A DNA stretch of 64,000 nt from an uncultured Gammaproteobacteria bacterium (GCA_964650355.1 CAZYTL010000005.1:23209-87208), one strand, 5' to 3'; positions 1 to 43,737 are shown, numbered from the stretch's first letter. A program made the numbers and translations. Notes: generated from the letters alone by a model not told the origin.

Positions 1-240
1 AAAATCGGCAAACTGGTGCTCAAATCTCCCCACATAATTATTTATTCCTAAGGGGTCGTTAACTACAGACACAGCATGATCGCAAGAAGGACAGTGGATC
101 TCCCCCCAGTTACCTATTGTTCCATCCTCAAAATCTTGAACAATAACCGCCGCCCAAGTGGTTGTAGCACCTACACTCATCACTACCAAACCCATTCCCA
201 CAACTACCAGCAAGTTAATTAACGATCTTTTACTCGCCAT
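1..240 (-). CDS. 5'-partial secreted protein. The N-terminus lies at 240 and the gene runs off the window start. Signal peptide plus the start of a concanavalin-like polysaccharide-lyase-type jelly roll.
   Basis: The reverse complement from the cat at 238-240 reads MASKRSLINLLVVVGMGLVVMSVGATTTWAAVIVQDFEDGTIGNWGEIHCPSCDHAVSVVNDPLG..., open to position 1. It resembles the N-terminus of the 40010..41458 protein (FESGDLSGWRDGGHCC). Confidence 0.45.
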   Translation of the reverse strand, partial: MASKRSLINLLVVVGMGLVVMSVGATTTWAAVIVQDFEDGTIGNWGEIHCPSCDHAVSVVNDPLGINNYVGRFEHQFADF

Positions 241-274
241 TACCTTAACCTTATCAAAAAATCATGGTTAATTC

Positions 275-2425
275 TCAATTAACAATTACCTTTCCCCAAT
301 CAATCGTATTCACCTTCCCGTCTCCGGTCATATCTCCTAATCCCGTCAACCAGTTTGTCAGTAAATACTTCAGGTCCCTTACCCTATACCTTACCTGATC
401 ACTAATCACCATCTCCCCAAACACTGTCGAGTCTCCCGCCGGCTTGCTACTTCCTACCGGAAACCATAATAAGTAATCGTCTCTTCCTCCTCCGTCATCA
501 TCATCATTAATCCCTAAGTCAAACCCGATCATCTGATTCACCGGTGCATTACTCTGCCCTAAATTCCCCCACGGTATCGCTGCCTCTACCACATATCCAT
601 TACTCCCACTTACTACCGCATGCTCTACACCCGTAGTTCCGCTAATTATCCCCTGCTCAGCAATCCGATTAGTCAAATCAATCGTATATTGATGGTCATT
701 CCCGTCATACCCTGCCTGTCCGTCCCTGTCCCCGTCCACAAATATCTCTACACTATCATCGTCCCAGATGTTGGCTGCCTCATTACTTAATACATCATCT
801 GTTACCCTAACTCCCACATACAAATATTGCTCATCCCATGCGGCCTGCCAGCTCCCGCTCACATCACTTGCCGGCTCATTCACCTGCGCATACCCAAACT
901 CTCCTTCGTTTACTGGTATCCCTTCCCAGTCACTTAAATCCCCGTCTATCACCATCGGCGCCACCACCCGATTACTCTCAGCTCTCGGCCACGGTGCCAT
1001 TGTCGGTGTCGGACTGGTTGTCGCATCTGAAGGGTATTCATAAGCACCCATGTCAAACCCTCCTCCTTGTGGCCTGCTCACCCCAGCATAATCAAACGTG
1101 ATCCCCTGGCTAGTTAGGTCTACCCCACCATCTATCGCAGGAGAGTCACCTTGCAGTGAATAATCATCTGCCCCCGCATTGATAAACTTCACATCAGAAA
1201 CATTTGTCTGCGTCAAATTATCTGACACTACCACATTGTTCCCGCTCCCGATCGTCACATACCTTTGTTCCCCGTCTACGATAATGTTATTCTGTACTCT
1301 ATTATTATTGCCTTTATCGTTATTAAAAGCTATACCATTACGACTGGGGTTTATGATTGTATTATTCCAGACATAAATACTCTTCCCTACCACACCCGCC
1401 GGCGCCACTTTTATCCCGTTGTAATCTGAATTTAAACCCGGTCTGACTATCACGTTATTATAAATCCTGTTACCTCCATTACCTTGGACGTATATTCCTG
1501 TACCCCATCCGTCTTTGATTAAATTATTGTAAATATTACATACGCTCCCTAGATTATTCATTACCCCGCCTGAAAACCCCGGATCATGTGCCTGACTATC
1601 TTTGTAAATCAAATTATGGTGAATTCCGCAATCCGCTATTGCCGACCCTACTTGAATCCCCTTCATGCCAATGTTTTCCACTCGATTGTTATAAATATTC
1701 ACCCCCCTCAACACCGAATCATAAACATACTCTGTTCCGCTATTACAACTCAAACTCCTCCCCTGGTAGAACGAGCTGCCAATATAAAAAGCCGAATGTC
1801 CTGTACCATGCACATAATTATCATGCAAGACTGAATTATACTGTGTAAATTTGCTCCGGTTCACCACATCATCCAAATCACCTACTTTTATCCCGTCCCC
1901 GTCGTAATCATACGCATGCCAGTCACTGGTCGATCCGTCAGAACAGACCGCCACCGTCTTCGCTGATATCCCAATTATTGGCACTCCTGATACCTCAATG
2001 TGATCCACCTCAAAATCACTCGTCTTGTTGGGCATCGTTATCCCGTTTGCCGTCGAGTGAATAATCTTTATCCCGTACTTGACTTGAGTGTCACCTGTCC
2101 CGGTAATCTTGATATACTTGCTGTTTTGCACCAAAATCCCCTCTGACGTCGTTGAGTTAATCACCACTTGCCCACCGAAATTAATAAACGTAATTGGCGT
2201 ACTCGTGTCTCTCAAAAAATTTCTTAACTTCAAACTATCTCTATTTCCAGATAAAATGCACACTGTATCACCAGGCTGCACAGCAGCATAATTTTCCCTC
2301 CCGTCCGCAATCGATACGTTCACAGGAATCGTATAATCACAACTCACAGCTCCGTAAACCGTTCCTGGAACCATCAACCACCCTCCTATCACCATCATGA
2401 ACAACCAAACCAATCTTCTCCTCAT
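275..2425 (-). CDS. Secreted beta-helix family protein. Signal peptide, conserved N-domain (AVSCDYTIPVNVS..GDTVCI..GNR), parallel beta-helix repeats, PT linker, CBM9-like module, C-terminal dockerin-like tail.
   Basis: 716 aa ORF with a hydrophobic N-terminus. It has repeated NN.I/YNN beta-helix rungs and a TSPTPT linker. The CBM9-like block is DGDLSDWEGIPVNEGEFGY...DDDSVEIFVDGDRDG. The tail is LLTNWLTGLGDMTGDGKVNTIDWGKVIVN. Confidence 0.8.
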   Translation of the reverse strand: MRRRLVWLFMMVIGGWLMVPGTVYGAVSCDYTIPVNVSIADGRENYAAVQPGDTVCILSGNRDSLKLRNFLRDTSTPITFINFGGQVVINSTTSEGILVQNSKYIKITGTGDTQVKYGIKIIHSTANGITMPNKTSDFEVDHIEVSGVPIIGISAKTVAVCSDGSTSDWHAYDYDGDGIKVGDLDDVVNRSKFTQYNSVLHDNYVHGTGHSAFYIGSSFYQGRSLSCNSGTEYVYDSVLRGVNIYNNRVENIGMKGIQVGSAIADCGIHHNLIYKDSQAHDPGFSGGVMNNLGSVCNIYNNLIKDGWGTGIYVQGNGGNRIYNNVIVRPGLNSDYNGIKVAPAGVVGKSIYVWNNTIINPSRNGIAFNNDKGNNNRVQNNIIVDGEQRYVTIGSGNNVVVSDNLTQTNVSDVKFINAGADDYSLQGDSPAIDGGVDLTSQGITFDYAGVSRPQGGGFDMGAYEYPSDATTSPTPTMAPWPRAESNRVVAPMVIDGDLSDWEGIPVNEGEFGYAQVNEPASDVSGSWQAAWDEQYLYVGVRVTDDVLSNEAANIWDDDSVEIFVDGDRDGQAGYDGNDHQYTIDLTNRIAEQGIISGTTGVEHAVVSGSNGYVVEAAIPWGNLGQSNAPVNQMIGFDLGINDDDDGGGRDDYLLWFPVGSSKPAGDSTVFGEMVISDQVRYRVRDLKYLLTNWLTGLGDMTGDGKVNTIDWGKVIVN

Positions 2426-2475: not shown

Positions 2476-2637
2476 AGAAACATGTAGCAAAAAACAAAAA
2501 ACTGAGAAACTAAGAGACAACGTAGTTACCTAATTACAACAAATTACTACTTTCTACTACCTACTTCCAAAATTCTTACTCCTGAATTCGAAATTCTATC
2601 TTCTATATTCTCATTTCTGATTCCTGTTTACCAATTA

Positions 2638-2717: not shown

Positions 2718-4679
2718 CTACTGACCACCGACCACCTTTCCCCAATCAATCGTATTCACCTTCCCATCCCCGTTCTGATCCAACAACCCATCAAACCAAC
2801 CCCCTAACACCTGCCTCAACTTTTTCCCTAATCCCATCTTTATTCCATAGATATCTACCTCCGTCAAACTATTCCACTCATTGGTATTATTTATATGCCC
2901 CAAATACCTCACGTATCTCCCTTGTATATCCGAAAAATCATATACCTCCTGCTCGAGAGTCATTCCGCTGCTTTCCCCACTCCACACCGTCTCCCAATTT
3001 ACCCTGTCACTCGAAACCTGTAAGTCAAACTTATTCATTCTACTGTCTCCTTGATATACCCCGATCCTCACCAGTCCCACCGTCCTCACTACACCTAAAT
3101 CATATTCAATCCATTGTCCGTCTCCGCTCGCTGACCAACGGGTACTCAAATCATTATCCACCGTATTTCCTGATAGGTTAGTCCCATCGTCTCCACTTGT
3201 CCTCACTCTACTAACGTCAGGCGTTATCTCCTCATACCTGGGATCAATCGTTGGTGTGGGCCGCGGAGTTACACTTGGTGCGCTGTTCATATATTCATCT
3301 GCTCCCACATCAGATCTGGCTATTCCGTCTCCGTTACCATCTTGAGGTCGTGGCTGATCATCTATATCTCTGACCGCATACCCACTACTACTGCCCTGAT
3401 CTATCGCCGGAGAGTTTACCGTTAAATGAAAATCCAGTTGTGACGGATCTTTAAACTTGACCGCATCTCTTTGGCCGTAAACTAAATTATTATAAGCATT
3501 CACATAATTACTTACCACTCCTGTCTCTAAAGTCTCGGCTATCAAATTATCATAAACCGCCCCCTGTTTTGGAGTTGAACTGACTCTGATTCCGCTCCGA
3601 GAACTTTTAACAATCGTATTATTATAAATCATTCCTCCATCTCCCAAGTCCCAGTTAATCCCCTGCGCACTTGTAGCCATCCCCGAATTGTAAAAAATAT
3701 TATTGTAAATCACATATCCTCCGATTCCTTGAATATACATCCCCGAACCTCGAGAATTATAGATTTGGTTATTATAATAATTACCAGTAGTCCCCCTATT
3801 TATGATCATTCCAAATCTCCCGTTCCCAGCTGATGGATCTGAAGACAACCCTGCATCCCTAACTATATTATGATGAATATCAACTTCACTTACCGCACTC
3901 CCCACCTGAATCCCGTCCCACCCCGTCCGATCCACCACATTATTATAAACCTTCACCCCTCTCAATACCGGATCATCAACATATTCTGTTCCGCTATTAC
4001 AACTCAAACTCCTCCCTTGGTAGAAAGAACTGCCGATATAAAACCCCTCTGTTCCCACATCATGAACATAATTATCATGAAAAATCGAATTAATCTGCGT
4101 AAAATTACTCCGATTCACCACATCATCTAAATCACCCACCTTTATCCCGTCTCCGTCGTAATCATACGCATGCCAATCGGAAGTCGATCCATCAGAACAA
4201 ACCGCCTCTGTCTTCGCTGATACGCCAATTATCGGCACCCCTGATACCTCAATGTGATCCACCTCAAAGTCACTTGTCTTGTTGGGCATCGTCATCCCGT
4301 TCGCCGTCGAGTGAATTATCTTTATCCCGTATTTGACTTGAGTATCTCCGGTCCCTGTAATCTTGATAAACTTACTGTTTTGCACCAAAATCCCTTCTGA
4401 CGTCGTCGAGTTGATCACCACTTGCCCTCCGAAATTAATAAACGTAATTGGCGTACTCGTGTCCCTCAAAAAATTTCTTAACTTCAAACTATCTCTATTC
4501 CCGGCTAAAATGCAAACTGTATCTCCTGGTTGCACACCAGCATAATTACCCCTCCCGTCTGCAATCGATACGTTCACGGGAATCGTATAATCACAGCTCA
4601 CCGCTCCGTAAACTGTCTCTGGATTCATCAACCCCCCTGCTATCACCATTATGAATAACCCGACCAGATTTCTCCTCAT
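2718..4679 (-). CDS. Secreted beta-helix family protein with C-terminal F5/8 type C (discoidin) domain and dockerin-like tail.
   Basis: 653 aa. The first 230 or so residues are nearly identical to the 275..2425 protein, including at nucleotide level. The discoidin block is SGNTVDNDLSTRWSASGDGQWIEYDLG. The tail is LGGWFDGLLDQNGDGKVNTIDWGKVVGGQ. Confidence 0.8.
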   Translation of the reverse strand: MRRNLVGLFIMVIAGGLMNPETVYGAVSCDYTIPVNVSIADGRGNYAGVQPGDTVCILAGNRDSLKLRNFLRDTSTPITFINFGGQVVINSTTSEGILVQNSKFIKITGTGDTQVKYGIKIIHSTANGMTMPNKTSDFEVDHIEVSGVPIIGVSAKTEAVCSDGSTSDWHAYDYDGDGIKVGDLDDVVNRSNFTQINSIFHDNYVHDVGTEGFYIGSSFYQGRSLSCNSGTEYVDDPVLRGVKVYNNVVDRTGWDGIQVGSAVSEVDIHHNIVRDAGLSSDPSAGNGRFGMIINRGTTGNYYNNQIYNSRGSGMYIQGIGGYVIYNNIFYNSGMATSAQGINWDLGDGGMIYNNTIVKSSRSGIRVSSTPKQGAVYDNLIAETLETGVVSNYVNAYNNLVYGQRDAVKFKDPSQLDFHLTVNSPAIDQGSSSGYAVRDIDDQPRPQDGNGDGIARSDVGADEYMNSAPSVTPRPTPTIDPRYEEITPDVSRVRTSGDDGTNLSGNTVDNDLSTRWSASGDGQWIEYDLGVVRTVGLVRIGVYQGDSRMNKFDLQVSSDRVNWETVWSGESSGMTLEQEVYDFSDIQGRYVRYLGHINNTNEWNSLTEVDIYGIKMGLGKKLRQVLGGWFDGLLDQNGDGKVNTIDWGKVVGGQ

Positions 4680-4754: not shown

Positions 4755-6650
4755 TTACAACAGACCACTTATCACCTTCCCCCAATCCCAACTATTTACC
4801 ACCCCATCTTCGCTCCCGTCTCCTGCACTACCTAACCAATTACTCAACAAAAACCTCCACCCCGGTTCCTGGTATACCAATCTAATCGCATCTGCCACCA
4901 CATCTTCTCCTCCGCTTACCATATCACTAACCGTCACCGACCCTTGATTAATAAAATAATATTTTCCCAACAGATTCCATTGCTCGTTACTTACCTGCTG
5001 GTTCACTCTTACTTCTTCTGCTCCTCCGGTAAAATTTATCGTATACGGTACATCAGTTGGCCGTATCATCGATGGCCACCAACTCGCATATACCTCATAC
5101 TCTCCCGGCCGGTTAACCGTAAACGACCACGTAGCTGTATCTCCGCCTCTAATCAAATGGTTAAACATATGCGAACTACCGTAGTGCAACCCCTGGGGAT
5201 CAACGTATTCCTGCCACATATCCTGCACAAACGCAGTGCTAAACCCCTCATCGACATTATCAATAATCATCTCATTTGGATTTACAGTTGGTGTTGCCAT
5301 CGGACTCATACTTACATACTCATACGCTCCCATATCTGGTTTGGAATCCCGTGAATTACCTTCAAAGTCAAGGCTGACTCCTACCGCTGTTCCCTCATCT
5401 CTTACCAAACTATCAGACACTAACCGAAAATCATTCACTGCCCTGTCCACAAACCCCGGGTCCACATGCAAAGTATTTGGCCCATCCAAAGCATGGCTGG
5501 TCCCTGGTCCTCCGTACCAATCATTATAATCCATCACATTACTGCCCGATAAACTCCGATTATTAATCTGCTCATCAGTATTAAAGGCTGAAATATTGTC
5601 AATGATCCGGTTATTTTTCAGATTCTTAAAATCTGCAAATAATATTCCTGTCCTATTACCCACCACCGTGTTGTGGTAAATTTCATTTCCGTACCCCACC
5701 ACCGTGTCTGCCGGCCAACCATCCAGTTTGCCCGCGTCCAACCTGATTCCGGAATACGGATTCCCGTAAATCAAATTATTGGTTACTTTAGTCAACCTCC
5801 TCACATAAATCGCCGCCTGTGTATAATTACGACCGCATTCATAAATTCTATTACCGTCAATCACATTGGCGTCCGGCGACCCGATTCCAAAATGTCCACA
5901 ATCAGAAATCGTATTTCCCTGTATCAGGGTACCCACGGCATTCAGCTTAGTATCCACCCCTTCCCATACATTATAAATCGTATTACCAATCACTTTATTA
6001 TTCCGACAATGATGTGTATAACTAGCCCCGCCTTTGGACACATAAATCCCTTCACCTAATGAAATATCATAAACTTCATTATTTTCTAACAAATTATCAT
6101 CGCACGACGGATAATCAGGATTGTCATAGTGAATACCAATCTTAATTCCAATTGTCGTCCCGGAATAATACGTCGGATCTATATAAATATGATGAATCTT
6201 CATCCCCCGCACAATATTGTGGTCCGCCCATATATTCATCGCTTCTGCAATGAAATTCTTCAGCTCTAATCCTTCAATAATCCAGTAGTCATGCTTGATT
6301 CCCAAAAACTTTTGCACCACATAATTGCCGTCAATCACCACCCCGCTCGACTCTGGTTTAACCGTGATCGGTGCCTGAGCCGTTCCACTAGCCGCAGTTT
6401 CAGCGTACATATACAAAGGACTACTCCCCCCTCCGCCCACATTATAAGTACCACCTCGAATCAACAACCGGTCCCCGGCTCTTAGTTTGTTAATCCCGTA
6501 GCTGATCGATTTCCATGGGCTCTGACTGCTTCCGCTGTTGCCGTCATTTCCTGTGGTCGCCACATAATAATCCGCTGCCAGCGCTGTTTTGGACATTACC
6601 AGATTCATCCCCACGCCTATCAATAACCAAACCGCGATTCTTCTTAACAT
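4755..6650 (-). CDS. Secreted right-handed beta-helix protein (DYYVATTGNDGNSG...PW type N-terminus), with a beta-sandwich carbohydrate-binding-like module and dockerin-like tail.
   Basis: 631 aa with a signal peptide. The N-terminus AADYYVATTGNDGNSGSSQSPWKSI is typical of pectin-lyase-fold proteins. The C-terminal module is DTATWSF..PGEYEVYASWW..VPYTINF..VVADAIRLV. The tail is WRFLLSNWLGSAGDGSEDGVVNSWDWGKVISGLL. Confidence 0.75.
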   Translation of the reverse strand: MLRRIAVWLLIGVGMNLVMSKTALAADYYVATTGNDGNSGSSQSPWKSISYGINKLRAGDRLLIRGGTYNVGGGGSSPLYMYAETAASGTAQAPITVKPESSGVVIDGNYVVQKFLGIKHDYWIIEGLELKNFIAEAMNIWADHNIVRGMKIHHIYIDPTYYSGTTIGIKIGIHYDNPDYPSCDDNLLENNEVYDISLGEGIYVSKGGASYTHHCRNNKVIGNTIYNVWEGVDTKLNAVGTLIQGNTISDCGHFGIGSPDANVIDGNRIYECGRNYTQAAIYVRRLTKVTNNLIYGNPYSGIRLDAGKLDGWPADTVVGYGNEIYHNTVVGNRTGILFADFKNLKNNRIIDNISAFNTDEQINNRSLSGSNVMDYNDWYGGPGTSHALDGPNTLHVDPGFVDRAVNDFRLVSDSLVRDEGTAVGVSLDFEGNSRDSKPDMGAYEYVSMSPMATPTVNPNEMIIDNVDEGFSTAFVQDMWQEYVDPQGLHYGSSHMFNHLIRGGDTATWSFTVNRPGEYEVYASWWPSMIRPTDVPYTINFTGGAEEVRVNQQVSNEQWNLLGKYYFINQGSVTVSDMVSGGEDVVADAIRLVYQEPGWRFLLSNWLGSAGDGSEDGVVNSWDWGKVISGLL

Positions 6651-7333: not shown

Positions 7334-9562
7334 TTAATTATCAAAACGCCCCCCCTCCACCCAACTCACCCCATTCTGCAAACTCCCATCATTGTGATTA
7401 CCCGTCGCGTCGTGAACCACCGTTCCGCTGCCTTCATTAAACTTCCAGTAACCCACCAACCCGGCTGCACCCAGATCAACCTCTCGACTCATATCTGACT
7501 GAATCTGTTGCTGAGTCCTGGCATAATTCCACAACCTCAATTCGTCTTCCTCTCCCTGCAAACTGTAACTACTTACCGCTGAAGAAATATACATATCTTC
7601 TGTCGTGCCAATGGATCTCCCATTCAAAACACTTATATCAAAGTTCCCCACCAAATTTCCATCTAAATAAAAGCTCGCCTGCTGACTCCTGTCAGCCACC
7701 ACTGCCACCTGATGCCACTGATCATCCTTGATCCCCAACGACTTATCTGAATTCGCATATACAACCTGGCTTCCATCCCCCAAATATAATCTCAAATCAT
7801 CATCCTGGTTTGAATACCAAAACCAATACCCCGGCTGAGAAGCACTGCTCGCGCCCTTATAATCAATATTGAAATTTGAATTCTGCGTACTTGCCACCTT
7901 CACCCAAGCTTCAATCGAAAAATCCCCGCTCCCTACATCCAACTCCGGGACGTTAGCAAACCTCACTCGGTCGTCTATCCCGTCAAAATGCACCGCATAT
8001 TTAACCGGCGGCCTAATGATTAACTTCGCCCAATCCAGACTATTGATCACTCCGTCGGCTACTCCTTCAAAAATCTGGTTATTAGTCAACCAGCTAACTA
8101 ATAAACTCTTTGCCTGAGAGGCCCAAGGTATCGGCGTTACCGTCGGTGTCGGCACTATCCCTGACGCATATTCATACGCCCCGATATCATAAACTCCTTC
8201 TTGCGGACGGCTAATTCCCAAATAATCACTAGTGACAAAATCCACTGTTGTACCCGCATTAACCGCTGGCGATCCCGATTGCACGGAGTAATCACCACTG
8301 CCCGGATCAGTAAATTTTACCTCCCCCACCGTGGGGCTCGATAAGTTATTCGTCACCAAAACCCCGGCCGTAGTCTTAATATACGTCTCGCCGTTTTGGG
8401 GATTTACCACCAAATTATTTTGCACTAAATTATCGCTTCCGAAATCCTGATTGAACAAAATTCCCCATCCTCTTGGTTTCACAATCGTATTATTGGCAAC
8501 AAAAACACTATTACCATGATTTATTTTTGTACCAACATATATACCGCTCCCGTTAGCACTAGTATAAGAACTGTACCTACCCGGATTTATAATCACATTA
8601 TTAAACACATGATTCAACCCATGTCCCTGCACATAAATTCCGGCTCCAATAATGTCCGTAATAAAATTATTATAGACATCACACACACTTCCCGGATTAA
8701 TCATATAACCTCCCTCATGTGCTGTCTGCTGTTCAGTTCCTGTATTTGTTATCCGATTATGATGCGCGTCGCAATTTTCCACTGCTGATCCGATTTGAAT
8801 TCCCTTAGTGCCGATATCTTCCACCTGGTTACCGTAAACATGCACGCCCTTCAAAACCGGATCATAAATCGTGGCTGTTCCTCCGCAATTTAATTCATAA
8901 GCTCCCTCTACATAATGCGAACTTCCTAAATACATCCCCATCGAAATATTGTAAATATATATGTCATGAAAAGTAATGTTGTGTGTAGTTATTTCGGTTT
9001 ACCGCATCCTGAGCATCAATTTCTCCATCGTTATTATAGTCATACCCTCTCCAGCTGGTGGGGGACCCGTCTGGGCAGGTCGAATCCGCCTTACTTGACA
9101 CTCCGATTCCGGTTCCTCCTATTCCGGTGATTTCCAAATGATCGACTTCAAAATTGTCAGACTTATGCAATAAATTAATTCCCGTATTCGTAGATCCTGA
9201 AATCTTTATTCCGTAATTCACCCCTGCCGCCCCCGTTCCCGTAATTCTAATATGACTGCTATTGCTCACTTCTATCCCCGAAGACTGGCTGGTATTAATT
9301 ACTACTTGCCCCCTGAATTAATAAAAGTAATCGGTGTCGTGGACGATCTTTTAAAATTTATCAAATTCAACGCTCCTCGGTTTCCGGCTTCAATACACAC
9401 CGTATCTCCGGGTTTCACACTCGCATAATTACCTCTACCGTCAACCCTTGTTACCCCTGTGGAAATAGTAAAATCGCAACTCAGTGCTTCATAAACTACT
9501 TCCGGACTCATCATCCACCCGATCACGATTAATCCAACCATCCAAATCAATCTTCTCCTCAT
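7334..9562 (-). pseudogene. Disrupted member of the beta-helix family, with an internal dockerin-like module and a C-terminal LamG (concanavalin-like) domain. It is split into three ORFs by two frameshifts.
   Basis: ORF 9302..9562 carries the signal peptide and N-domain and stops at ...PITFINSGGK*. The intact paralog continues SGGQVM, so a 1-nt shift is likely. ORF 8964..9269 continues (IRITGTG...NRNNYTQHYFS*). ORF 7334..8941 resumes the helix in another frame (HDIYIYNISMGMYLGSS against paralog HDNYIHDVGAEALYIGGS), then carries SLLVSWLTNNQIFEGVADGVINSLDWAKLI plus LamG. Confidence 0.7.
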
Positions 9563-34418: not shown

Positions 34419-36536
34419 CTACTGACCATTGACCCTCACAGTCCAGTCCCAGCTATTCACTTTCCCATCCCCATTTCCGTCTCCTGTTACTCCAAACCAA
34501 CTACTCAGCAAATACTCCCACCCAGGTCCCTGATAAACTAATCGCACCGCATCCGCCACCACATCCTCTCCTGAACTGGCCATATCACTTACTACCACCG
34601 ATCCTTGATTCATAAAATAATGTCTCCCCAATAGATTCCATTGCCCGTCAGTTACCTGTTGATTCATCCTCAACTCGTCTGTCCCTCCGGCAAAATTGAT
34701 CGTGTACGGCACATCAGCAGGCCGCTTCGCCAATGGCCACCAACTCGCATACACATCATACATTCCCGGTTTACTTACACTAAATGACCAGGTAGCTGTA
34801 TCTCCGTCTCCTATCAAATGATTAAACAGATGCGATCCTCCATAGTGCAACCCTTGGGGATCAACGTATTCCTGCCAAGCATCCGGCCCGGATGTGGTTC
34901 GGAATCCCGCGTCCGCGTTATCCACAATCACCACCTCTATATCAGGTGTAGGAGTTGGCGTCGGGGATAACGTCGGCGTCGGCGAAGCTGAACCCGGGGT
35001 CGGAGTGGGAATCGTCCCTCCGTACACTCCATCCAGAGTTTTCCATAATCCCCCACTGCTTTGCCATGTAACCGAAATCCCTCTCTCCGCCATAATTCTG
35101 TCTTCCATAGGCCAGGGCCACAACGGCTGAGTCGTTAATACTCCGTCTTCGTAACGATATATTACATCCGCCCCCACATCTCCTCCGTTTTCTCCTTTGC
35201 CAGCCAATTCCGTCCTTGAGGCCATTAAATAAGCCCCGTATCCGTATTTGCCCACCGGCCAATTAACCGTTAACGAACTTTCATTACTCCCGCTACTGGT
35301 ATTGAAATAAGGATGCGTCATCACCGGTGTGAATCGATTTTGAGAGTGTGTCAACAAACCGGAAACCCCGCTTTCTTTATAGAAAGCGTACCCGGAATCC
35401 AATCCGCCGAAATAAGCATCCCTCACTTCCAAGGCTCCGGAGTTTCCTTCGGCCAGCACCACACCTCTGGCAGCAGCGGCATTGCTGATCCACGTAAAAT
35501 TCCTTACCTGGTTATTACTACTTTTATTCGAAGACACGCCCCTGGGTGCTGATTCTGCGTTCGTGGCGTTAATCGCCACAATATTTTCCATCCGACAACC
35601 ACTACACGACGTAAAGTAATAAGAATTTCCCTTGCCTTCCTTAATTACCGACCCCAAAACTTTCTGGTTTTGTCCCGGAATAATAATTCCGTGCACCGGT
35701 GCGCTATAAGCATTACCCGAGCTGTCTTTTCCGTGGCATGGCAAAGCCTCCGCACTGCCATTAAACCCGATCGCATTTTCAATCACCGTATTATAACCTC
35801 CGTATACTTCAATATTTTGACACCATGCATACTTATCAGGATTGCTGAATTTCTCCCACAGATTAAAAAATCTCCGCACAGTCACATCATACGTATCCCA
35901 ATCAACCAGCAAACCATGAATCCCTTCCCCGTAAGCTGCTCCGTCTTCAATTAAAATATCATGCGTATAAATCAATTGATTATTTGTGTCTCTACCTCCT
36001 CCTTCAATTTTAAACACCGGATTCCACAACCCCTTCCCGTCTCTGGCAGACACCCTTCGTAAACGAACATCATGCGACCCTGATCCCGCCACCCCGCTCA
36101 CCCCCTTGATCGTTACCGGTGAACATTGCCCCCCCACAATATTGGGATTTGAACATTTTCTAAAATAAATCCCTTCAACATCAATATAGCTTGACCGCTC
36201 TATCCACAAAGTCAAACGTTGATTCTCACCGTCTACTACAACCTGGCCGTCATTAATTGCTCTAATTACAATCCGTGCATCAACCCTGCCTTGTTTATTT
36301 ACCACCTTCATTGCCTGTCGATACGTCCCGTTATAAATATTTAATCTATCTCCGAGACCCAATTCTCCTATCGCGTGGGCAAAAGTCGCCCACGGACTCT
36401 GACTGCTACCACTGTTACTATCACTCCCGTTCGTAGCTACATAGTAATCCACCGCCCACACCGGTTTAGTTACCACATTCAAATTCATCCCCACTCCGAT
36501 CAATAATCCAACCACCGTAACCATTCTTATCTTCAT
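34419..36536 (-). CDS. Secreted beta-helix protein with beta-sandwich carbohydrate-binding-like module and dockerin-like tail.
   Basis: 705 aa. The N-terminus is AVDYYVATNGSDSNSGSSQSPWATF. The CBD block is DTATWSFSVSKPGMYDVYASWW. The tail is WEYLLSSWFGVTGDGNGDGKVNSWDWTVRVNGQ. Confidence 0.75.
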   Translation of the reverse strand: MKIRMVTVVGLLIGVGMNLNVVTKPVWAVDYYVATNGSDSNSGSSQSPWATFAHAIGELGLGDRLNIYNGTYRQAMKVVNKQGRVDARIVIRAINDGQVVVDGENQRLTLWIERSSYIDVEGIYFRKCSNPNIVGGQCSPVTIKGVSGVAGSGSHDVRLRRVSARDGKGLWNPVFKIEGGGRDTNNQLIYTHDILIEDGAAYGEGIHGLLVDWDTYDVTVRRFFNLWEKFSNPDKYAWCQNIEVYGGYNTVIENAIGFNGSAEALPCHGKDSSGNAYSAPVHGIIIPGQNQKVLGSVIKEGKGNSYYFTSCSGCRMENIVAINATNAESAPRGVSSNKSSNNQVRNFTWISNAAAARGVVLAEGNSGALEVRDAYFGGLDSGYAFYKESGVSGLLTHSQNRFTPVMTHPYFNTSSGSNESSLTVNWPVGKYGYGAYLMASRTELAGKGENGGDVGADVIYRYEDGVLTTQPLWPWPMEDRIMAERGISVTWQSSGGLWKTLDGVYGGTIPTPTPGSASPTPTLSPTPTPTPDIEVVIVDNADAGFRTTSGPDAWQEYVDPQGLHYGGSHLFNHLIGDGDTATWSFSVSKPGMYDVYASWWPLAKRPADVPYTINFAGGTDELRMNQQVTDGQWNLLGRHYFMNQGSVVVSDMASSGEDVVADAVRLVYQGPGWEYLLSSWFGVTGDGNGDGKVNSWDWTVRVNGQ

Positions 36537-36589: not shown

Positions 36590-37325
36590 CTACCTCCTCG
36601 CCCACCCCACCCCATTGATCAACTGACCGTCGATATGATTACTCGTCGCGTCATGTGCCACCATTCCGCTCCCCTCATTAAACTTCCAATAACCTACCAA
36701 TCCCGGAGAACTCACGTCCACCTCCTTGTTCATATTCCCCTCGATCTCCGCCTCACTTCTGGCCACATCCCAGATTCTCACCTCATCTATCTCCCCGCTC
36801 ATATACTCTGCGCTCAACCTCCCAATCAATAATGGATTGCTATCCTGGTTTATCGTATCACTCCCGACACTGACCTCTTCCACCTTTACTCCGTCTACAT
36901 ATAGCCTCTGATACTGTCCGTCATACATACACGCCATGTGATACCACGTATTATTACTCACACTTGTGTCCCAACTCACCCGACGATTGCCTGCATTAAC
37001 GTAGTTAAAATAACAATTGAAACTGCTTTCATTTACCCACAGTCTCATCTGATTAAAGGCTGTACTCATCAAATTACTATTAGCGCTAAAATTATCAGCC
37101 TTCACCCATCCCTCTATCGTAATTCTATTACCGGGCTTGTATGCGCTACTACTGGGCACTTCCACATAACCATCCACCCCGTCAAAACTTAAACTGTAAT
37201 TCGTATTCATCCCCACTTTCGTTGCCCAATCCAAACTATTAACCTTTCCATCCCCAACCAAATCCAGTCAGGCTCATCCCCAGCCCTATCAATAACCAAA
37301 CCAGCAAGACTAATCTTCTCCGCAT
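36590..37325 (-). pseudogene. Minimal or remnant family member. The family promoter and signal peptide are joined, across a +1 frameshift, directly to a dockerin-like module plus LamG domain.
   Basis: From the ATG at 37325 the reading is MRRRLVLLVWLLIGLGMSL..., stopping after 28 codons. Skipping 1 nt gives LDLVGDGKVNSLDWATKVGMNTNYSLSFDG... open to 36590. The ORF track starts this frame at a TTG (37261). The TGATAGAGTGGAAGT-ATG promoter box is present at 37326-37340. It looks like a deletion derivative of a 23103-like gene. Confidence 0.55.
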
Positions 37326-37381: not shown

Positions 37382-39976
37382 TTACTGACCAACAACTACC
37401 TCTGTCCAGTCCCAACTATTCACCTTCCCGTCTCCATTTATATCTCCTAAACTTGTCAACCAGTTCATCAACAAATACTTCAAATCTCTCATCCGATATA
37501 TTAGCCTGTCTTTAATCACCATCTCCCCAAAAGCCGTGGTATCATCCGCCGGTTTTTTCACTTTCACCGGAAACCATAATAAATAGTTGTCCCTGCTTCC
37601 TCCGTCGTCATCGTCATTGATACCCAAATCAAACCCCATTATTTGATTCACTGATACATTACTCTGCCCTAAATTGGGATCCCAAGGTATGGCTACTTCT
37701 ATCACGTAGCCATCGCTACTGATGGCCACCGCATGCTCCACCCCGGTTGCTTCGCTGATTGCCCCATGCTCAGCTATACGGTTGAGTAAATCAACCGTAT
37801 ATTGGTGGTCGTTCGCATCATAATCAGCCTGACTATCTCTATCCCCGTCTACAAAAATCTCCACGCTGTCATCATCCCATATATTAGTCGACTCGTTACT
37901 TACCAATTGATCATCTGTCACTTTCACCCCTACATATAAATACTGCTCATCCCATGCCATCTGCCAACTCCCGTTCACGTCACTTGCCGGCTCACTCGCC
38001 TCCGCATAGCCAAACTCCCCCTCGTTCACTGGTATCCCTTGCCAGTCATCCAAATTCCCATCTATCATCAACGGCGCAAACACCCGCACTCCTTCCACCG
38101 GTAACCACGGCACTATCGTCGGCGTCGGACTGGCACTACTACTAACTGTTAACTGTCTCCAATTATAACTCAGAGTAGGATACCCTGGATAACTAAGAGT
38201 AAACACGTCTGATCCGTAAGCAAACTGCGCATAAGGACTATCCAAAATCGGATAACTCAAGTCAGCTTTAGTTAACGCCTGTCCGTTAATTTCCCGCCCT
38301 TTTAAAATATCACTGTCATATCGCAGTGACAAACTGGCTCCGTCTTTTGCTTGATAATTAATTTGCGGATAGGTTTTACTAAAACTCACGCTGCGTGATC
38401 GGATATTCTGCTTAAAAGCATCAAAAGACGCATAATCGTCAACATGGGCAATTTCCCCGACTCCACCTGATTTTCCATTTGCCCTTACTAACCAATAACC
38501 ATTCTTTGAATCCCAAACCATTTTTCCACTCTCTCCCCAGGCTCGGTATGCGATATAAGCTTCACCCTGCTGACCAAACCACCACCCGCTATAAGAAGAA
38601 GGTACATCCAATGTCGCATACTTAGGAATGTGCACCTGGGTAAACTCATACGTCTTCCCGTAAGGATTCCATACCTGCATCATCACATTCTTATAAAAAA
38701 GCATCCTCCGCTTCCCTCCGAACTCTATAGTAAAATCTCCCTCTCCGCTACCCGAATTTGCTTGGTTTGGGTCGCTGAAATCACCTGCATCCCCCGGTTG
38801 GATCTGAGTCAACACCGTCCTCTTCCCCCCTGCCTCTTCTGAAGTATAAATGCTATTCGTCTGGCCGTTGTTGGGCCAACCACTTGTATAGGCTTGACTG
38901 CCCCCCATGCCTGCTGCCTGGTTTTTAAGCACAAAATAATTCAACGGGTCTAGCCTCTTGTTGTCTATAAAGATTGCCGTGCCATAATCCCTGATATCTG
39001 AAAAAATGTCTGCCATTCTCCGCCATGAAAAATTTCCCTCAGCCGCCTTGCGGTGATAAATCTCTCTAATGATATCAGGAGGTTGATAACCTGACACCAC
39101 AATCCCCGGAGCTTTCCAGCTTAAAAAACCAGGCACGGGAATCTGCTCGGCAAACAACAACCACTTCCCGGTCAGAGACCAATTATCGTCCTCTACTGCC
39201 CCTTTATAGTCTCTACTTTCCGGCCCCACGTAAAGATTATGCGGCAACAAATTCAACGCGTTATTCAACAAAATATAATCAAGCGCAAACTGAGCCTTCT
39301 TCCGAATCTGCGCATCATTAGAATACGTCAAAGCCGTCAATCCCAAACAGGTGAGATCCGTGTAACTAGCGGAGTTGAATTCGAATTCTCCACTGGTCAT
39401 CATCCTTTCATAAGCCCGGTTAAAACGCATCTTTGCCACATCAATTCTAGTCTGATTCCCCAAAGCCTCCCCTGATAACATCACCGTCGCCGCCCACGTT
39501 ACCAAATGATTACTCATGGGTTCATCTCTGTTATCACCCCAAGTATCGTTCATTGCCCTTCTGAATACCTGATTCTTCAAGTCCGTACTAATACCAATAT
39601 CCGGATATTTCCTCAACCCCAAAACCACACTCACAGTCCAATGGTGATCAGCATTGCTATTGTTTAAACTCAGTGTGGTCTTGATATCTTTTTCCAAATT
39701 AGCCACTGTGTCATCAGAGTACGCCCATCCCCGCTTAATCCGCTCCATTCTGGCCAAAATCACTCCGCCGTTTTTCCGAATATCTCCGTCAATCGTTCGA
39801 ATATTCCTGTCCCAATTTCTAATCAAATATTCCGCGTGCTGATTATAGATCGTTTGATAACCACTCTCTACGATCGCAGCTTCTACAGGCAAAGAAAACC
39901 AGTAGACAAACACTATTGCCATTACTAAGCACACCCCCGTCTTAAATCCCCCGCTAATTAGATTACTTTTTGTCAC
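37382..39976 (-). CDS. Secreted large protein (unknown, possibly polysaccharide-lyase-like N-region) with CBM9-like module and dockerin-like tail. The ORF-track start is a GTG.
   Basis: 864 aa. The CBM9-like block MIDGNLDDWQGIPVNEGEFGYAEASEPASDVNG is about 85% identical to the domains in 275 and 14604. The tail is LLMNWLTSLGDINGDGKVNSWDWTEVVVGQ. There is no TAGAGT box upstream. Confidence 0.7.
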   Translation of the reverse strand: MTKSNLISGGFKTGVCLVMAIVFVYWFSLPVEAAIVESGYQTIYNQHAEYLIRNWDRNIRTIDGDIRKNGGVILARMERIKRGWAYSDDTVANLEKDIKTTLSLNNSNADHHWTVSVVLGLRKYPDIGISTDLKNQVFRRAMNDTWGDNRDEPMSNHLVTWAATVMLSGEALGNQTRIDVAKMRFNRAYERMMTSGEFEFNSASYTDLTCLGLTALTYSNDAQIRKKAQFALDYILLNNALNLLPHNLYVGPESRDYKGAVEDDNWSLTGKWLLFAEQIPVPGFLSWKAPGIVVSGYQPPDIIREIYHRKAAEGNFSWRRMADIFSDIRDYGTAIFIDNKRLDPLNYFVLKNQAAGMGGSQAYTSGWPNNGQTNSIYTSEEAGGKRTVLTQIQPGDAGDFSDPNQANSGSGEGDFTIEFGGKRRMLFYKNVMMQVWNPYGKTYEFTQVHIPKYATLDVPSSYSGWWFGQQGEAYIAYRAWGESGKMVWDSKNGYWLVRANGKSGGVGEIAHVDDYASFDAFKQNIRSRSVSFSKTYPQINYQAKDGASLSLRYDSDILKGREINGQALTKADLSYPILDSPYAQFAYGSDVFTLSYPGYPTLSYNWRQLTVSSSASPTPTIVPWLPVEGVRVFAPLMIDGNLDDWQGIPVNEGEFGYAEASEPASDVNGSWQMAWDEQYLYVGVKVTDDQLVSNESTNIWDDDSVEIFVDGDRDSQADYDANDHQYTVDLLNRIAEHGAISEATGVEHAVAISSDGYVIEVAIPWDPNLGQSNVSVNQIMGFDLGINDDDDGGSRDNYLLWFPVKVKKPADDTTAFGEMVIKDRLIYRMRDLKYLLMNWLTSLGDINGDGKVNSWDWTEVVVGQ

Positions 39977-40009: not shown

Positions 40010-41458
40010 CTACTGTTTTACCACTCTTACCCAATCCCAACAATTCACCTTCCCGTCTCCATTCTGATCTCCGATGGCGCTAAACCAATTGACCAACCAC
40101 GACTTCAAATTAGTCAGGTCTAAAGAAATTTTTTCAATCCGGATTTTGTCAAGTTTGGTGTTCATTTCCCGTCCTTGAAAGCGGAGAGTGTAGACCGGCC
40201 CGTTTGTGAGAGTAAAGATTCGGGGATCAGTTTTAGGCGAATCAAAAGTACCGCTGCCCCGGTAGCTGACCTGATTCCAAACCCAAGAAGTGGGAGGTTG
40301 AGTATCAATGGTTTGGTAGAGGATATCCCAGATGTCAGCAGTAGTAGGAGAGGTTTGGTTGATGGTAACGTAGAAGGAGTTATCGTTACCGGCAGTAGGC
40401 CAGACTCTGCCTGAGACTAAGTAGTCACCAGATTGGGCAACTCTGAATTGGAAGGCGGCGTTTCCATTATCTGCTTGGGAAGAATAGATATATTGACCTC
40501 CGGAAGCCGTGGAGTCAGAGTTGATAGTCATGGAAGATAGTTGCATAGACTCGGCCTCCGATTCATAGGCAGTTTGGATCAGAGCCGGAGTAGGTGTCGG
40601 GCCGGTCGTTGGGGAAGGCGTAGGAGTAGATGTGGGACCTCCCGGACAGGGAGGTCCTCCTTGATCAGGATTCACTTCTGCACAACTGGTACCTCTCCGA
40701 TACTCATCGTGATAGATAATCTCTGTATCACTATAAATGTCTTTGTTTCTATAAATCCCCATCTTCAAATAAGGCCCAGTATTATAATCGTAATCGTAGC
40801 CTACTGGCCCACCGTAATCTAAAACAGGATCCGGATTGCCATCCATCCAAACCCTCACATAATGGTTTCCTGATAGTCGGTAATCAAAACGAGTATTAAA
40901 AATAAAATCATGCCATACTCCCTGTGTTGCTTTTCCAATCCATTTATCCTGATTAGATCCTTCTGTAGATCTGATGCCAATATAAAAATCGCCCCCATAA
41001 ATGTACTGCAAGCTTAAAATCGGGCTATCTCCTCCGGTAGCCGCATGCCATTGGGCTATTATATTAAATCTGTAAGAACCATTTGGCTGATACCTAGGGT
41101 CAATATATACTGAAAACCCCTGCCAAACGTCTGTTGAATAAGGGATTTTGTCTTGATCATTAGCTCCATTTAACATAATTTCGGAGCGTTCATTTCCTCC
41201 CATGGGGTTTGGTGTGGGTATGTTTCCATCTCGCACTATGTTTCGCACCGCATATTTGCCGCTTCTTACCGGACTGGTTACCACCTGCGTCGAATCGGTA
41301 CAACAATGGCCACCATCTCGCCACCCGCTTAAATCCCCACTCTCAAAATCCAACACCTTGTGTTGAATATATTGAGCTCTTGCTGGGAACACAGCCACAA
41401 ATCCCATTACCCAGCATGCAACCACCAATCCAGCAATTCGCCACCATTTCCTGTCCAT
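40010..41458 (-). CDS. Secreted concanavalin-like putative polysaccharide lyase (PF14099-like jelly roll) with CBM6/35-like module and dockerin-like tail.
   Basis: 482 aa. The lyase block is ERSEIML...QWHAATGGDSPILSLQY. The CBM block is AYESEAESMQLSSMTINSDSTASGGQYIY..FQFRVAQSGDYLVSG..DNSFYVTI. The tail is LKSWLVNWFSAIGDQNGDGKVNCWDWVRVVKQ. Confidence 0.7.
   Translation of the reverse strand: MDRKWWRIAGLVVACWVMGFVAVFPARAQYIQHKVLDFESGDLSGWRDGGHCCTDSTQVVTSPVRSGKYAVRNIVRDGNIPTPNPMGGNERSEIMLNGANDQDKIPYSTDVWQGFSVYIDPRYQPNGSYRFNIIAQWHAATGGDSPILSLQYIYGGDFYIGIRSTEGSNQDKWIGKATQGVWHDFIFNTRFDYRLSGNHYVRVWMDGNPDPVLDYGGPVGYDYDYNTGPYLKMGIYRNKDIYSDTEIIYHDEYRRGTSCAEVNPDQGGPPCPGGPTSTPTPSPTTGPTPTPALIQTAYESEAESMQLSSMTINSDSTASGGQYIYSSQADNGNAAFQFRVAQSGDYLVSGRVWPTAGNDNSFYVTINQTSPTTADIWDILYQTIDTQPPTSWVWNQVSYRGSGTFDSPKTDPRIFTLTNGPVYTLRFQGREMNTKLDKIRIEKISLDLTNLKSWLVNWFSAIGDQNGDGKVNCWDWVRVVKQ
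40150..40640. repeat. Left arm of a roughly 480 bp inverted duplication. It encodes the CBM6/35-like module of 40010 and is G-rich on the plus strand, against the local skew.
   Basis: The reverse complement of 40270-40320 is cctctaccaaaccattgatactcaacctcccacttcttgggtttggaatcag. The matching 43420-43470 reads ctctatcaaaccattgacacccaacctcccacttcttgggtttgggatcag. Confidence 0.65.
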
Positions 41459-41589
41459 ACCTCCACTCTACCGCAACCTAACCTCAACTATCAACCTTTT
41501 CCGCCTCATGATATTCTGTAAATAAGTACTCATCTACCCATTTTTAAAAACTACCAATTCTCTCCTTAATTATTCTTATATGTAAAATC

Positions 41590-43737
41590 ATGAATAAACC
41601 TAAACACCTCTCATTTCTATTTCTTATCAGACTAGCCGTCAAGATTTCACTTTCTCTATTGCTCTTTCTATTTGTTAGTTCTCCGGTTTACGCCCAATCC
41701 ACAGTCACCATTGTTCCCACATTCCAATCTCTGGGCATTTATTGGCAACACTCTCAGGGGTCAAGTACCGCCCAAGTCCAATACCGGCCCTCAGGAACAA
41801 CTACCTGGCACACGGCTCACCCCATGTGGTATGCCGGTAACTCTGAATACCGCAGCAGCATTGTGCTACTAAACCCGGGGACTACATATGAAGTCCGTCT
41901 GACTCTGGGCACTTCCTCAGTCACTACCACCGCCACCACCTGGTCGGAAAACTTCCCCATCGGCCAAACCGTTACCTTGCCCGAAAACACCTCTCAAACC
42001 GTAACCATCAATAATTCAGGCACTGCCAACGGCTATCTGTTATATACCCATCAATCAGGCAAAACCGCCACCATCAATACTACCGCCACCAATAACATCA
42101 GAATCAACGGGTCCTATGTAATTATTCGTGGTTTGACGTTAAAAAACGCCGGCACGGACGCCATCAAAATTAGTAGAGAGTCTCACGACATCATCGTCGA
42201 AAACAATACTGTCACCAACTGGGGCGGATCAGGAAATAGTAATAACATGGCCGCAGCCGTCAGCACCGACCAACCAGGAAATGGTTACAACGCCGGACCT
42301 CGAATTATTATTCAAAACAATCTATTCACTACCCCCAGAGGCAACTCCAATACCTGGGACACTGCTCATCCCCATGGCCCTCAGGGAGTAACCCTGTGGG
42401 AAACCGACGGACAAAACGTCATCCGCAGCAACACCGTCACTTCCAATAATAGCCATTATTATAACGACGGGATCGGCGGAGGCAAAAATTCTAGTACCAG
42501 AGGCAACGTTTACCGCGACAGCGACATCTATAACAACACCGTGAAATATTGTCGGGATGATGGATTAGAAATCGAAGGAGGCAATATGAACGTTAGAATA
42601 TGGAATAACCATATCGATAACTGTTTTGTGGGCATCGCTACTGCAGCTAACCTCACTGGCCCCAATTACATTTTCCGCAACCTGATCACCAACGGCCGCC
42701 AGAGCGATGGCAATATCAAGTCAGCCGCCTTCAAGTTAGGCAGCGGCAGCACCTTTGGCGCCATCTACATTTACCACACCACTGTAAATAACGTCAGAAA
42801 CGGCCTCACCAACTGGGGCGGAGCAGTCTATAACCTCACCGCCAGAAATAACATCTTAAACACAATTCAAGATAGTATCGGCTCTACCATCGCTTCCTCT
42901 AACATTTATGACCACAACACTTGTGCCAATCCTGAAACTGGCTGCACCACCGGCACTGTAGCGTTCGAAAGCGGCTCTTATATTCCCACCTCCAGCATCG
43001 CTGTAGACAAAGGTCTTCCTATTCCTAATTTCAATGATGGCTATCTCGGCTCAGCTCCTGACATCGGCGCTTTCGAAAGAGGCGGTACCGTACCCAATCC
43101 CACAGCGACTCCCACATCTGGCCCTACTCCCACCACTGGTCCGTCGCCCACGCCCCCCCTCATCCAAACCGCCTACGAACTCGAAGCCGAATCCCTGCAA
43201 CTCTCTTCTCCCATGACCATCAACTCTGACTCTTCAGCTTCCAATGGTCAATACATCTCTTCCCCAATAGCTGAACAAGGAATCGCTGCTTTCCAATTCA
43301 AAGTTGCCCAAGATGGTGACTATCTCATCTCCGGTAAGGTTTTCCCTACCGCTGGGAATGATAACTCTCTTTACATCACCATCGATCAGTCCTCTCCCAC
43401 TGCCGCAGATACTTGGGATATTCTCTATCAAACCATTGACACCCAACCTCCCACTTCTTGGGTTTGGGATCAGGTCAGCTACCGGGGCACAGGTACCTTT
43501 GACTCTCCCCAAACTGATCCTCGTATCTTTACTCTCTCTGCCAACCACACCTACGCTCTCTATATCCAGTCCCGGGAAATCAACACCAAACTCGATAAAC
43601 TCCGCATTGAGAAAACTACCACCACTCCACCCACTTTGCAGCAATTTCTCACTCACTGGCTCACCTCTACCTTCGACCAAATCTTAGACGGCCAAGTCAA
43701 CAGCCTAGATTTTTCCCAAATCATAACCAATCTCTAA
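41590..43737 (+). CDS. Secreted beta-helix protein (plus-strand member): FN3-like N-domain, helix rungs, CBM6/35-like module, degenerate dockerin-like tail.
   Basis: 715 aa with a signal peptide. The rungs include IIVENNTVTNWGG and IWNNHIDN. The module AYELEAESLQLSSPMTINSDSSASNGQYISS...FQFKVAQDGDYLISG is about 80% identical to the one in 40010. The tail is LQQFLTHWLTSTFDQILDGQVNSLDFSQIITNL. Confidence 0.75.
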   Translation: MNKPKHLSFLFLIRLAVKISLSLLLFLFVSSPVYAQSTVTIVPTFQSLGIYWQHSQGSSTAQVQYRPSGTTTWHTAHPMWYAGNSEYRSSIVLLNPGTTYEVRLTLGTSSVTTTATTWSENFPIGQTVTLPENTSQTVTINNSGTANGYLLYTHQSGKTATINTTATNNIRINGSYVIIRGLTLKNAGTDAIKISRESHDIIVENNTVTNWGGSGNSNNMAAAVSTDQPGNGYNAGPRIIIQNNLFTTPRGNSNTWDTAHPHGPQGVTLWETDGQNVIRSNTVTSNNSHYYNDGIGGGKNSSTRGNVYRDSDIYNNTVKYCRDDGLEIEGGNMNVRIWNNHIDNCFVGIATAANLTGPNYIFRNLITNGRQSDGNIKSAAFKLGSGSTFGAIYIYHTTVNNVRNGLTNWGGAVYNLTARNNILNTIQDSIGSTIASSNIYDHNTCANPETGCTTGTVAFESGSYIPTSSIAVDKGLPIPNFNDGYLGSAPDIGAFERGGTVPNPTATPTSGPTPTTGPSPTPPLIQTAYELEAESLQLSSPMTINSDSSASNGQYISSPIAEQGIAAFQFKVAQDGDYLISGKVFPTAGNDNSLYITIDQSSPTAADTWDILYQTIDTQPPTSWVWDQVSYRGTGTFDSPQTDPRIFTLSANHTYALYIQSREINTKLDKLRIEKTTTTPPTLQQFLTHWLTSTFDQILDGQVNSLDFSQIITNL
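43090..43630. repeat. Right arm of the inverted duplication (CBM6/35-like module of 41590).
   Basis: See the 40150-40640 entry. The mirror-image spurious ORFs 40175..40414(+) and 43234..43680(-) both contain VADLIPNPRSGRL. Confidence 0.65.

Follow-up and report, generated by a model that had tools for sequence, protein, structure and literature searches.

Results

Secreted proteins sharing one short module

In the present study, we analysed a stretch of 64,000 nucleotides (GCA_964650355.1, CAZYTL010000005.1:23209-87208; hereafter the window) in which an array of genes encodes secreted proteins that act on or bind polysaccharides and carry the same short, dockerin-related module with a single calcium loop. 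A six-frame motif scan, combined with inspection of every long open reading frame (ORF), placed this module in 19 ORFs between positions 275 and 43737. It comprises approximately 32 residues with the consensus (K)xLLxNWLxxxGDxNGDGKVNSWDWxxVIxx. A hidden Markov model (HMM) of the module, whose underlying alignment did not include five of the 19 carriers, matched 19 ORFs of the window, the independent E-values (i-E) lying between 2e-19 and 6e-5. Any other ORF scored no better than an E-value of approximately 10; the original prediction of at least 19 carriers was thus confirmed, the number being exactly 19 by HMM. The strict back-translated DNA pattern for WLTxxxDxNxDGKVN gave three matches, against 0.00 expected by chance. 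Sec-type signal peptides were recognised on all carriers by inspection, and domain matches bore out the diversity originally described for the carriers: the cargo includes GH26, a PelZ-like pectate lyase, a PF14099 lyase, PL14 and many beta-helices, and the binding domains among the carriers are CBM9, Golvesin_C, F5/8 and LamG. At least three further tail proteins (P0028, P0030 and P0049) are encoded on the same contig outside the window.

In 14 ORFs the module forms the extreme C-terminus, with 12 residues following it in one of them (27616-29316). It directly precedes a Laminin_G_3 domain in four (7334-8941, 23103-25175, 29457-32729 and 36590-37261), and in one (16693-18231) it has an F5/8-type-C domain on one side and an unannotated domain of 300 aa on the other; it is therefore internal in five window proteins. 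The original statement that a Pro/Thr linker always precedes the module was not upheld, as such a linker is found ahead of only some tails and most tails abut a CBM9, Golvesin_C, F5/8 or CBM-like domain.

All carriers except one are encoded on the minus strand, and the domains next to the tail recur in several combinations. First, CBM9 is followed by the tail in five proteins: 275-2425 (716 aa, with signal peptide and beta-helix; module at 278..370, loop DMTGDGKVNTID), 14604-16622 (672 aa, beta-helix; 14607..14702), 20206-23049 (947 aa, PPC-like domain and unannotated region; 20209..20304), 25331-27568 (745 aa, beta-helix with choice-of-anchor Q; 25334..25429) and 37382-39976 (864 aa, unannotated region of 630 aa; 37385..37480). 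Second, Golvesin_C and the tail are joined to beta-helix, GH26 and PL14 enzymes: 4755-6650 (631 aa, beta-helix/DUF1565; 4761..4856), 18442-20118 (558 aa, PL14; 18445..18537), whose loop GSGNDGKVNSWD is without ligands 1 and 3, 27616-29316 (566 aa, GH26; 27655..27750) and 34419-36536 (705 aa, chondroitinase-B-like beta-helix; 34422..34517). Third, the tail is combined with LamG in four carriers. In 23103-25175 (690 aa; 23733..23828, loop DLVGDGKVNSLD) and 29457-32729 (1090 aa, beta-helix; 30111..30206, loop DLVNDEQINSLD) the order is Pro/Thr linker, module and Laminin_G_3, and the other two are the broken genes 7334-9562 (module before Laminin_G_3 at 8009..8104, with the loop EGVADGVINSLD degenerate at positions 1 and 3) and 36590-37325, where a half-module remnant, LVGDGKVNSLDW, at 37205..37261 is fused to Laminin_G_3 in the ORF 36590-37261. 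The tail thus moves as a cassette with a neighbouring carbohydrate-binding domain across unrelated catalytic parts.

In the remaining carriers, the C-terminal module follows F5/8 type C in 2718-4679 (653 aa, beta-helix; 2721..2816), a jelly-roll-like region and Pro/Thr linker in 9650-11743 (697 aa, beta-helix with choice-of-anchor Q; 9653..9748), and a CBM-like domain in 40010-41458 (482 aa, PF14099 polysaccharide lyase; 40013..40105). The protein of 32850-34358 (502 aa; 32853..32948) combines a PelZ-like pectate lyase with thrombospondin-type-3 calcium repeats (DSDGDGxxD, residues ~410-465) immediately upstream of the tail, so that two calcium-binding elements stand in series. The internal module of 16693-18231 (512 aa; 17605..17700, loop EMTDDGQTNSLD) comes after an N-terminal F5/8 type C domain. 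The sole plus-strand carrier, 41590-43737 (715 aa; 43639..43734, loop DQILDGQVNSLD), ends in a C-terminal module.

Seventeen of the genes are intact and two are broken. The gene 7334-9562 is split into three ORF pieces (9302-9562, 8964-9269 and 7334-8941), and in 36590-37325 the signal peptide, which starts from 37325, is out of frame with the half module and LamG, as in a deletion or frameshift derivative. Unless these two broken members are assembly errors, the array is evolving by birth and death.

Between 11800 and 14600, four small ORFs on the plus strand (12382-12777, 12781-13173, 13178-13720 and 13724-14506) break the continuity of the array, in a segment of lower G+C (0.41). These ORFs have neither signal peptides nor a Pfam family, and the sole PADLOC match in the 12.4-14.5 kb insert was weak and AbiEi-like (E 0.0012). 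A mobile or defence cassette may have been inserted here. A tRNA scan of the window detected no tRNA genes.

Sequence, selection and predicted structure of the module

The Trp of NWL and the loop residues D5, N9 and D12 are invariant across the modules. The loop agrees with the dockerin calcium-loop consensus D-x-[ND]-x-D-G-x-[VI]-N-x-x-D, including Asp at position 12, and oxygen ligands are present at positions 1, 3, 5, 9 and 12 in 13 of the 18 complete loops. Positions 10 and 11 are SW, SL, TI, VM or CW. A second calcium loop upstream of the module was not found in any carrier, which leaves one loop per module in 19 of 19. Since position 12 is Asp in all copies, with no bidentate Glu, and each protein has one copy, the module is not a canonical EF-hand pair. 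For the tail of 25331-27568, AlphaFold predicted a helix (11-23), a loop and a second helix (37-46), with a predicted local distance difference test (pLDDT) score of 70.7. The single calcium loop of the original description was upheld. Fold searches with this model gave no significant match; the top ones included the homodimeric troponin-C site-III peptide 1cta and polcalcins. The troponin C site III peptide, which dimerises on Ca2+, has the same arrangement of helix, 12-residue loop and helix within approximately 30 residues, and EF-hands are the nearest, non-significant, matches of the model. The module differs from it in having Asp instead of the bidentate Glu at position 12 and in being a natural extracellular tag and not a fragment.

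The conserved positions that are not ligands are hydrophobic, namely L, L, W and L in the first helix, V8, W or L at 11, W or F at 13, and V or I beyond, which on a lone EF-hand suggests an exposed interface. Among 13 tails, the proportion of synonymous differences (pS) was 0.72, with synonymous sites nearly saturated, and that of nonsynonymous differences (pN) was 0.29; for the pair 20206 and 25331, pS was 0.54 and pN 0.06. The tail is under purifying selection. The combination of high pS and low pN indicates that its conservation reflects selection on the protein and not recent gene conversion.

Descent from two-repeat dockerins

Pfam Dockerin_1 (PF00404) matched one window tail only, that of 27616-29316 (16.9 bits, E 0.0074, profile positions 2-23 of 57), and at E <= 1e-3 it recognised only 3 of 41 relatives; no NCBIfam model covers the tail. 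A profile of 40 modules was aligned by hhalign with a profile of 20 compact two-repeat dockerins from the Candidate Phyla Radiation (CPR), with a probability of 97.8 % and an E-value of 1e-12. The alignment joins module columns 4-37 to dockerin columns 14-49 of 56, which represent helix 1, the linker, loop 2 and helix 3. The compact dockerins have the consensus GDLNxDGIVNSLDWSIMNxxWFTNDxxADLNxDGIVNSIDFSIMNxNW and pass the Dockerin_1 cutoff of 22.9 bits with scores of 30.8-43.5; the Nomurabacteria protein OGJ01434.1 is among them. They share with the module the LxxxW(L/F)T helix, the DxNxDGxVNS(L/I)D(W/F) loop and a cargo of beta-helix, F5/8 and LamG domains, but their two loops lie 27 residues apart, whereas the module has one loop and a linker of 3-4 residues. 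Moreover, two intermediates were observed: P0083 has two loops, the second half being module-like, and at the locus L014 the neighbour of a carrier has a decayed first loop. In a comparison with the sequences of solved structures, the best matches of the module profile were the CelS dockerins of Clostridium thermocellum (2mte and 1daq; E 1.7e-6), in which both repeats were matched.

On the strength of the profile alignment, the module is shown to descend from the CPR compact two-repeat dockerins, with calcium loop 1 lost and helix 1, a shortened linker, calcium loop 2 and a short helix 3 kept. Because the alignment runs from helix 1 to helix 3, the module can be described as a dockerin that lacks the first calcium loop and has a single complete EF-hand left. 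With one repeat and a sub-threshold Pfam score it does not qualify as a dockerin formally, yet, judged by its sequence, it is clearly dockerin-derived. The original description of an autonomous, dockerin-related tag on unrelated secreted proteins is thus supported. Considering this descent together with the analogy to known dockerins, we regard it as somewhat probable that the tag lets all carriers dock, in a calcium-dependent manner, on a receptor that they have in common.

A separate observation concerns the GEVED-domain protein at 62566-63942, which runs past the end of the window and contains a lone dockerin-like stretch, DLVRDEKVNMLDVADWLF; this stretch was significant neither with the module HMM nor with the two-repeat dockerin HMM.

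Comparison with known dockerin systems

The closest functional parallel is provided by the group-2 dockerins of Ruminococcus flavefaciens FD-1, which are naturally truncated, single-loop and functional, and of which two copies bind to each cell-anchored ScaE cohesin and together mimic a full dockerin (PMC12270676, PMC2930009). Artificial half-dockerins also bind cohesin, and in a structural study from 2025 the five group-2 sequences of R. flavefaciens were described as the only known functional naturally truncated dockerins (PMC12270676). The module resembles this group in its single calcium loop, its length of ~45 residues or fewer, its C-terminal position on secreted proteins and its two-repeat ancestry. 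Several differences are evident, however. First, the group-2 dockerin RfDoc2 is arranged as loop-helix-loop-helix with an extra C-terminal helix of the group-4 type, whereas the module consists of helix, loop and short helix, so that a different half of the dockerin has been kept. Second, the recognition positions 10 and 11 are Gly-Arg in RfDoc2 and mainly Ser-Trp or Ser-Leu in the module. Third, the five members of group 2 come from a single Firmicute whose cohesin is known, whereas the module is found 19 times in one locus and dozens of times in the CPR. The truncation of the module is independent of that in R. flavefaciens group 2.

The type I dockerin-cohesin system of C. thermocellum shares with the module the calcium-loop consensus, the C-terminal position on many different carbohydrate-active enzymes and the loop match to CelS. 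In contrast, the module has no second repeat, its flanking helices do not align, and no scaffoldin or cohesin was detected with it in the window; its host is a reduced CPR bacterium, and its cargo consists mostly of lyases and beta-helix proteins instead of cellulases.

Relatives and modularity of the tail

When 1.84 billion cluster representatives were scanned exhaustively with HMMER, 520 matches at E <= 1e-3 were obtained, and the compact two-repeat dockerins were among the lower-scoring ones. Among the best 150 of these 520, there were 54 single full-length modules, 12 from window proteins and 42 from elsewhere, and the rest were ordinary multi-loop dockerins; the matches are therefore not confined to two-repeat dockerins. 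Of the 42 single-module representatives from elsewhere (again among the best 150 of 520), 39 have a module that ends no more than 3 residues from the C-terminus. The carriers are named in the databases as "hypothetical protein" or after their cargo only, and the tail is annotated in none. The strict DNA pattern was found once in 185,579 species genomes and in five stretches of a metagenome collection, which, given the strictness of the pattern, is a lower bound.

Groups of carriers also occur at other loci. A 29-kb contig of a different organism (L003 1-20799, JGI 3300041077) encodes 11 tandem SBBP beta-propeller paralogues, all 11 with the tail, whose consensus is NWKQMLxNWLTPTxDQNGDGKVNSLDWGKL; in one paralogue it is internal, ahead of a further domain. 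A Woesebacteria genome (GCA_001793005.1) has three neighbouring carriers, and in one of these, a propeller protein, the module is at the mature N-terminus after the signal peptide and is followed by a Pro/Thr linker. Small clusters of carriers are also found at L008 and L011, and carriers adjoin each other in every locus. In addition to SBBP propellers, the cargo in relatives includes GH5, phosphatases and an FKBP. The family is real, selected, modular and recurrent in other CPR genomes.

The beta-helix homologues in other lineages end differently. In Bacteroidota they carry the C-terminal domain (CTD) of the type IX secretion system (T9SS), and in Chloroflexi a cohesin plus dockerin, or Pro/Thr tails. 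Given these homologue ends, and the match of two carriers to the choice-of-anchor Q model, the tail occupies a slot that is used for surface attachment in other lineages. This position bears on whether the tail is a secretion or sorting signal that is removed by a dedicated machine, such as PEP-CTERM/exosortase or the T9SS CTD, to both of which the module was originally compared, or LPXTG/sortase. Such a signal typically shows itself as one short tag shared by many paralogues, and on homologous beta-helix proteins the choice-of-anchor C-terminal domains (T9SS CTD PF18962, PEP-CTERM and LPXTG) occupy the same architectural slot as the tail. The tails, however, are hydrophilic and have no hydrophobic helix, basic tail, transmembrane segment or LPXTG-like motif; the module shows no similarity in sequence or structure to the choice-of-anchor domains, is far too small for the beta-sandwich of a CTD (80-100 aa) and is homologous to dockerins; and it is not strictly C-terminal, being internal in five window proteins and N-terminal in the Woesebacteria protein. 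PF18962 itself was found only in Bacteroidota homologues. The comparison with sorting signals is therefore not sustained, and we consider this explanation very improbable.

The same slot might instead be used for calcium-dependent binding to a non-protein ligand, either a glycan of the cell's own wall or S-layer or a polymer on the surface of a host, the tail being a small lectin-like module or wall anchor. In addition to the anchor slot, this would fit the observation that the tail always travels with carbohydrate-binding domains, and CPR bacteria live attached to hosts. We nevertheless give it a low probability, since there is no known precedent for a glycan binder in the form of a 32-residue helix-loop-helix, the nearest relatives of the module are protein-docking modules, and the carriers already own dedicated carbohydrate-binding modules (CBMs).

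Elsewhere in the window, 48617-50062 and 50389-51984 encode adjacent membrane proteins that resemble type IV secretion system (T4SS) pilins (PF18895). Their N-terminal 222-233 aa are 86-89 % identical and their C-terminal domains differ (Laminin_G_3 versus CarboxypepD_reg-like), a pattern suggestive of another instance of cassette swapping in surface proteins.

Host lineage and strand bias

The window derives from a member of the Microgenomates, within the CPR (Patescibacteria). The best named matches of the GAPDH encoded in the window are from Patescibacteria, Ca. Chazhemtobacterium (64 %), Microgenomates, Blackburnbacteria and Woesebacteria, and the T4SS-pilin-like proteins of the window are typical of the CPR. 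An extreme disparity of G and C between the strands has been reported as a trait of the Microgenomates order UBA1400, for which unidirectional replication was proposed; in Ca. Chazhemtobacterium aquaticus, one strand has 29.8 % C and 15.0 % G (PMC7143001). In the window, the GC skew of the plus strand ranges from -0.17 to -0.42 over 1-64000 whatever the orientation of the genes, and at third codon positions the minus-strand genes have a skew of +0.40 and the plus-strand genes one of -0.68. The strand disparity of the window matches the UBA1400 trait.

This bias also appears to reshape the conserved module. The plus-strand carrier 41590-43737 and the minus-strand carrier 40010-41458 are paralogues with 67 % identity over the C-terminal 189 aa, and in the plus-strand copy, residues have changed to others whose codons are rich in C (W to F, K to Q, G to N, and V to T or I). 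In its tail, Trp is replaced, giving NSLDF instead of NSWDW, and Ile is found at loop position 3.

Candidate partners and possible self-pairing

The single lead to a receptor is a truncated ORF at L011/L013 (3351-3776 of ORJL010178499.1, GCA_900218215.1), which lies directly downstream of two carriers on a contig that ends after 129 aa of the protein. Its product has a membrane anchor and, after it, a stretch with a weak likeness to the initial strands of a cohesin (12.6 bits, hhalign probability 14 %); this protein may be a receptor. A local HMM made from three Chloroflexi cohesins detected nothing in the window and one marginal fragment in L011. Together with the Pfam search, this agrees with the original statement that no cohesin is detectable in the window.

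A second membrane protein was considered as a receptor and rejected. It is encoded inside the array at 6741-7277, in the same orientation, and has 178 aa with an N-terminal membrane anchor and no tail. It belongs to no Pfam family, has no homologue near the other arrays, and its single-sequence model (pLDDT 42.9) was useless.

The tails might also need no cohesin. A lone EF-hand would be unstable, and two tails, whether from the same enzyme, from different enzymes, or one C-terminal and one N-terminal, could form a two-EF-hand unit with Ca2+ and thereby give scaffold-free enzyme dimers. EF-hands normally act in pairs, the non-significant fold matches at the top of the search include the homodimeric 1cta and polcalcins, carriers are adjacent in every locus, and no cohesin lies near any carrier in the flanks that were examined. 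In the RfDoc2 crystal, two single-loop dockerins are in mutual contact through 39 non-bonded interactions (PMC12270676). However, the R. flavefaciens copies pair on the cohesin and not alone, and a dimer provides no link to the cell; we therefore regard self-pairing as unlikely, although by no means negligible. An extension of this idea, to which we assign a slightly smaller likelihood, is an assembly in which the tails of different secreted proteins pair through Ca2+ into dockerin-like units and a C-terminal tail might pair with an N-terminal, membrane-proximal one. If true, a genome-reduced CPR cell would be able to build combinatorial enzyme pairs, or a surface display, without a scaffoldin.

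Discussion

Herein, we propose that the tails serve as docking tags, in the following manner. After export by the Sec pathway, the loop would bind one Ca2+ through positions 1, 3, 5, 9 and 12 and the backbone carbonyl at position 7. The bound ion would fold the module and expose a conserved hydrophobic face formed by L, L, W and L on the first helix, the W or L at position 11, and the W/F and V/I on the second helix. This face would then dock all the carriers on one shared receptor, most probably a cohesin-type domain at the cell surface, which possibly holds two tails side by side as in the group-2 dockerins of R. flavefaciens. The enzymes would thereby be held on or near a very small cell. 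Among the mechanisms considered, docking is the best supported, because of the dockerin ancestry of the module, the integrity of its calcium loop and the precedent in R. flavefaciens.

Several observations weigh against docking. The module of the window remains below the gathering threshold of Dockerin_1 (best score 16.9 versus 22.9 bits), and its similarity to solved dockerins, such as CelS, does not extend beyond the loop. In five loops, position 1 or 3 no longer provides a side-chain ligand. Cohesin (PF00963) was found neither in the window nor in the carrier flanks examined, including a 6-kb copy of one window flank, and Pfam made no call on the L011 ORF, which with its weak cohesin resemblance is the sole candidate partner. 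In addition, Peer and colleagues reportedly noted in 2009 that most dockerin-like modules in organisms without cellulosomes have no demonstrated function.

The five degenerate loops and the failure to find a partner would also be expected if the tail were a decayed dockerin that is kept merely as a structural calcium clip, for the stability or protection of the protein end and without any docking. The thrombospondin-type-3 calcium repeats on one carrier are in line with such a role. However, strong purifying selection acts on the surface hydrophobics and not on the ligands alone, and the same tail is carried by very different cargo at either terminus; a purely structural role thus seems improbable, and docking remains the reading that we prefer.

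The novelty of the system should be stated with care. The original prediction of an undescribed system for sorting or display goes too far. Functional single-loop dockerins are on record (PMC12270676, PMC2930009), and proteins with cohesin and dockerin were found to be expressed in a Microgenomates metagenome-assembled genome (bioRxiv 10.1101/2021.08.21.457207); the novelty is reduced because single-repeat dockerins and CPR cohesin-dockerin components were thus already known. A single-loop dockerin family in the CPR was not described in the literature searched.

Compared with R. flavefaciens group 2, the tails form a far larger family of single-loop dockerins that arose independently and that has kept a different half of the dockerin under clear selection. 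The host lineage belongs to the CPR, whose surface biology is almost unknown, and the 44-kb array occupies a sizeable share of a genome of probably about 1 Mb. A 32-residue docking tag that can be switched by calcium would be useful for designer enzyme assemblies. If the tails do dock, they would show by what means an ultra-small cell holds a large set of polysaccharide lyases, together with binding proteins, at its surface, and would provide a handle on the receptor.

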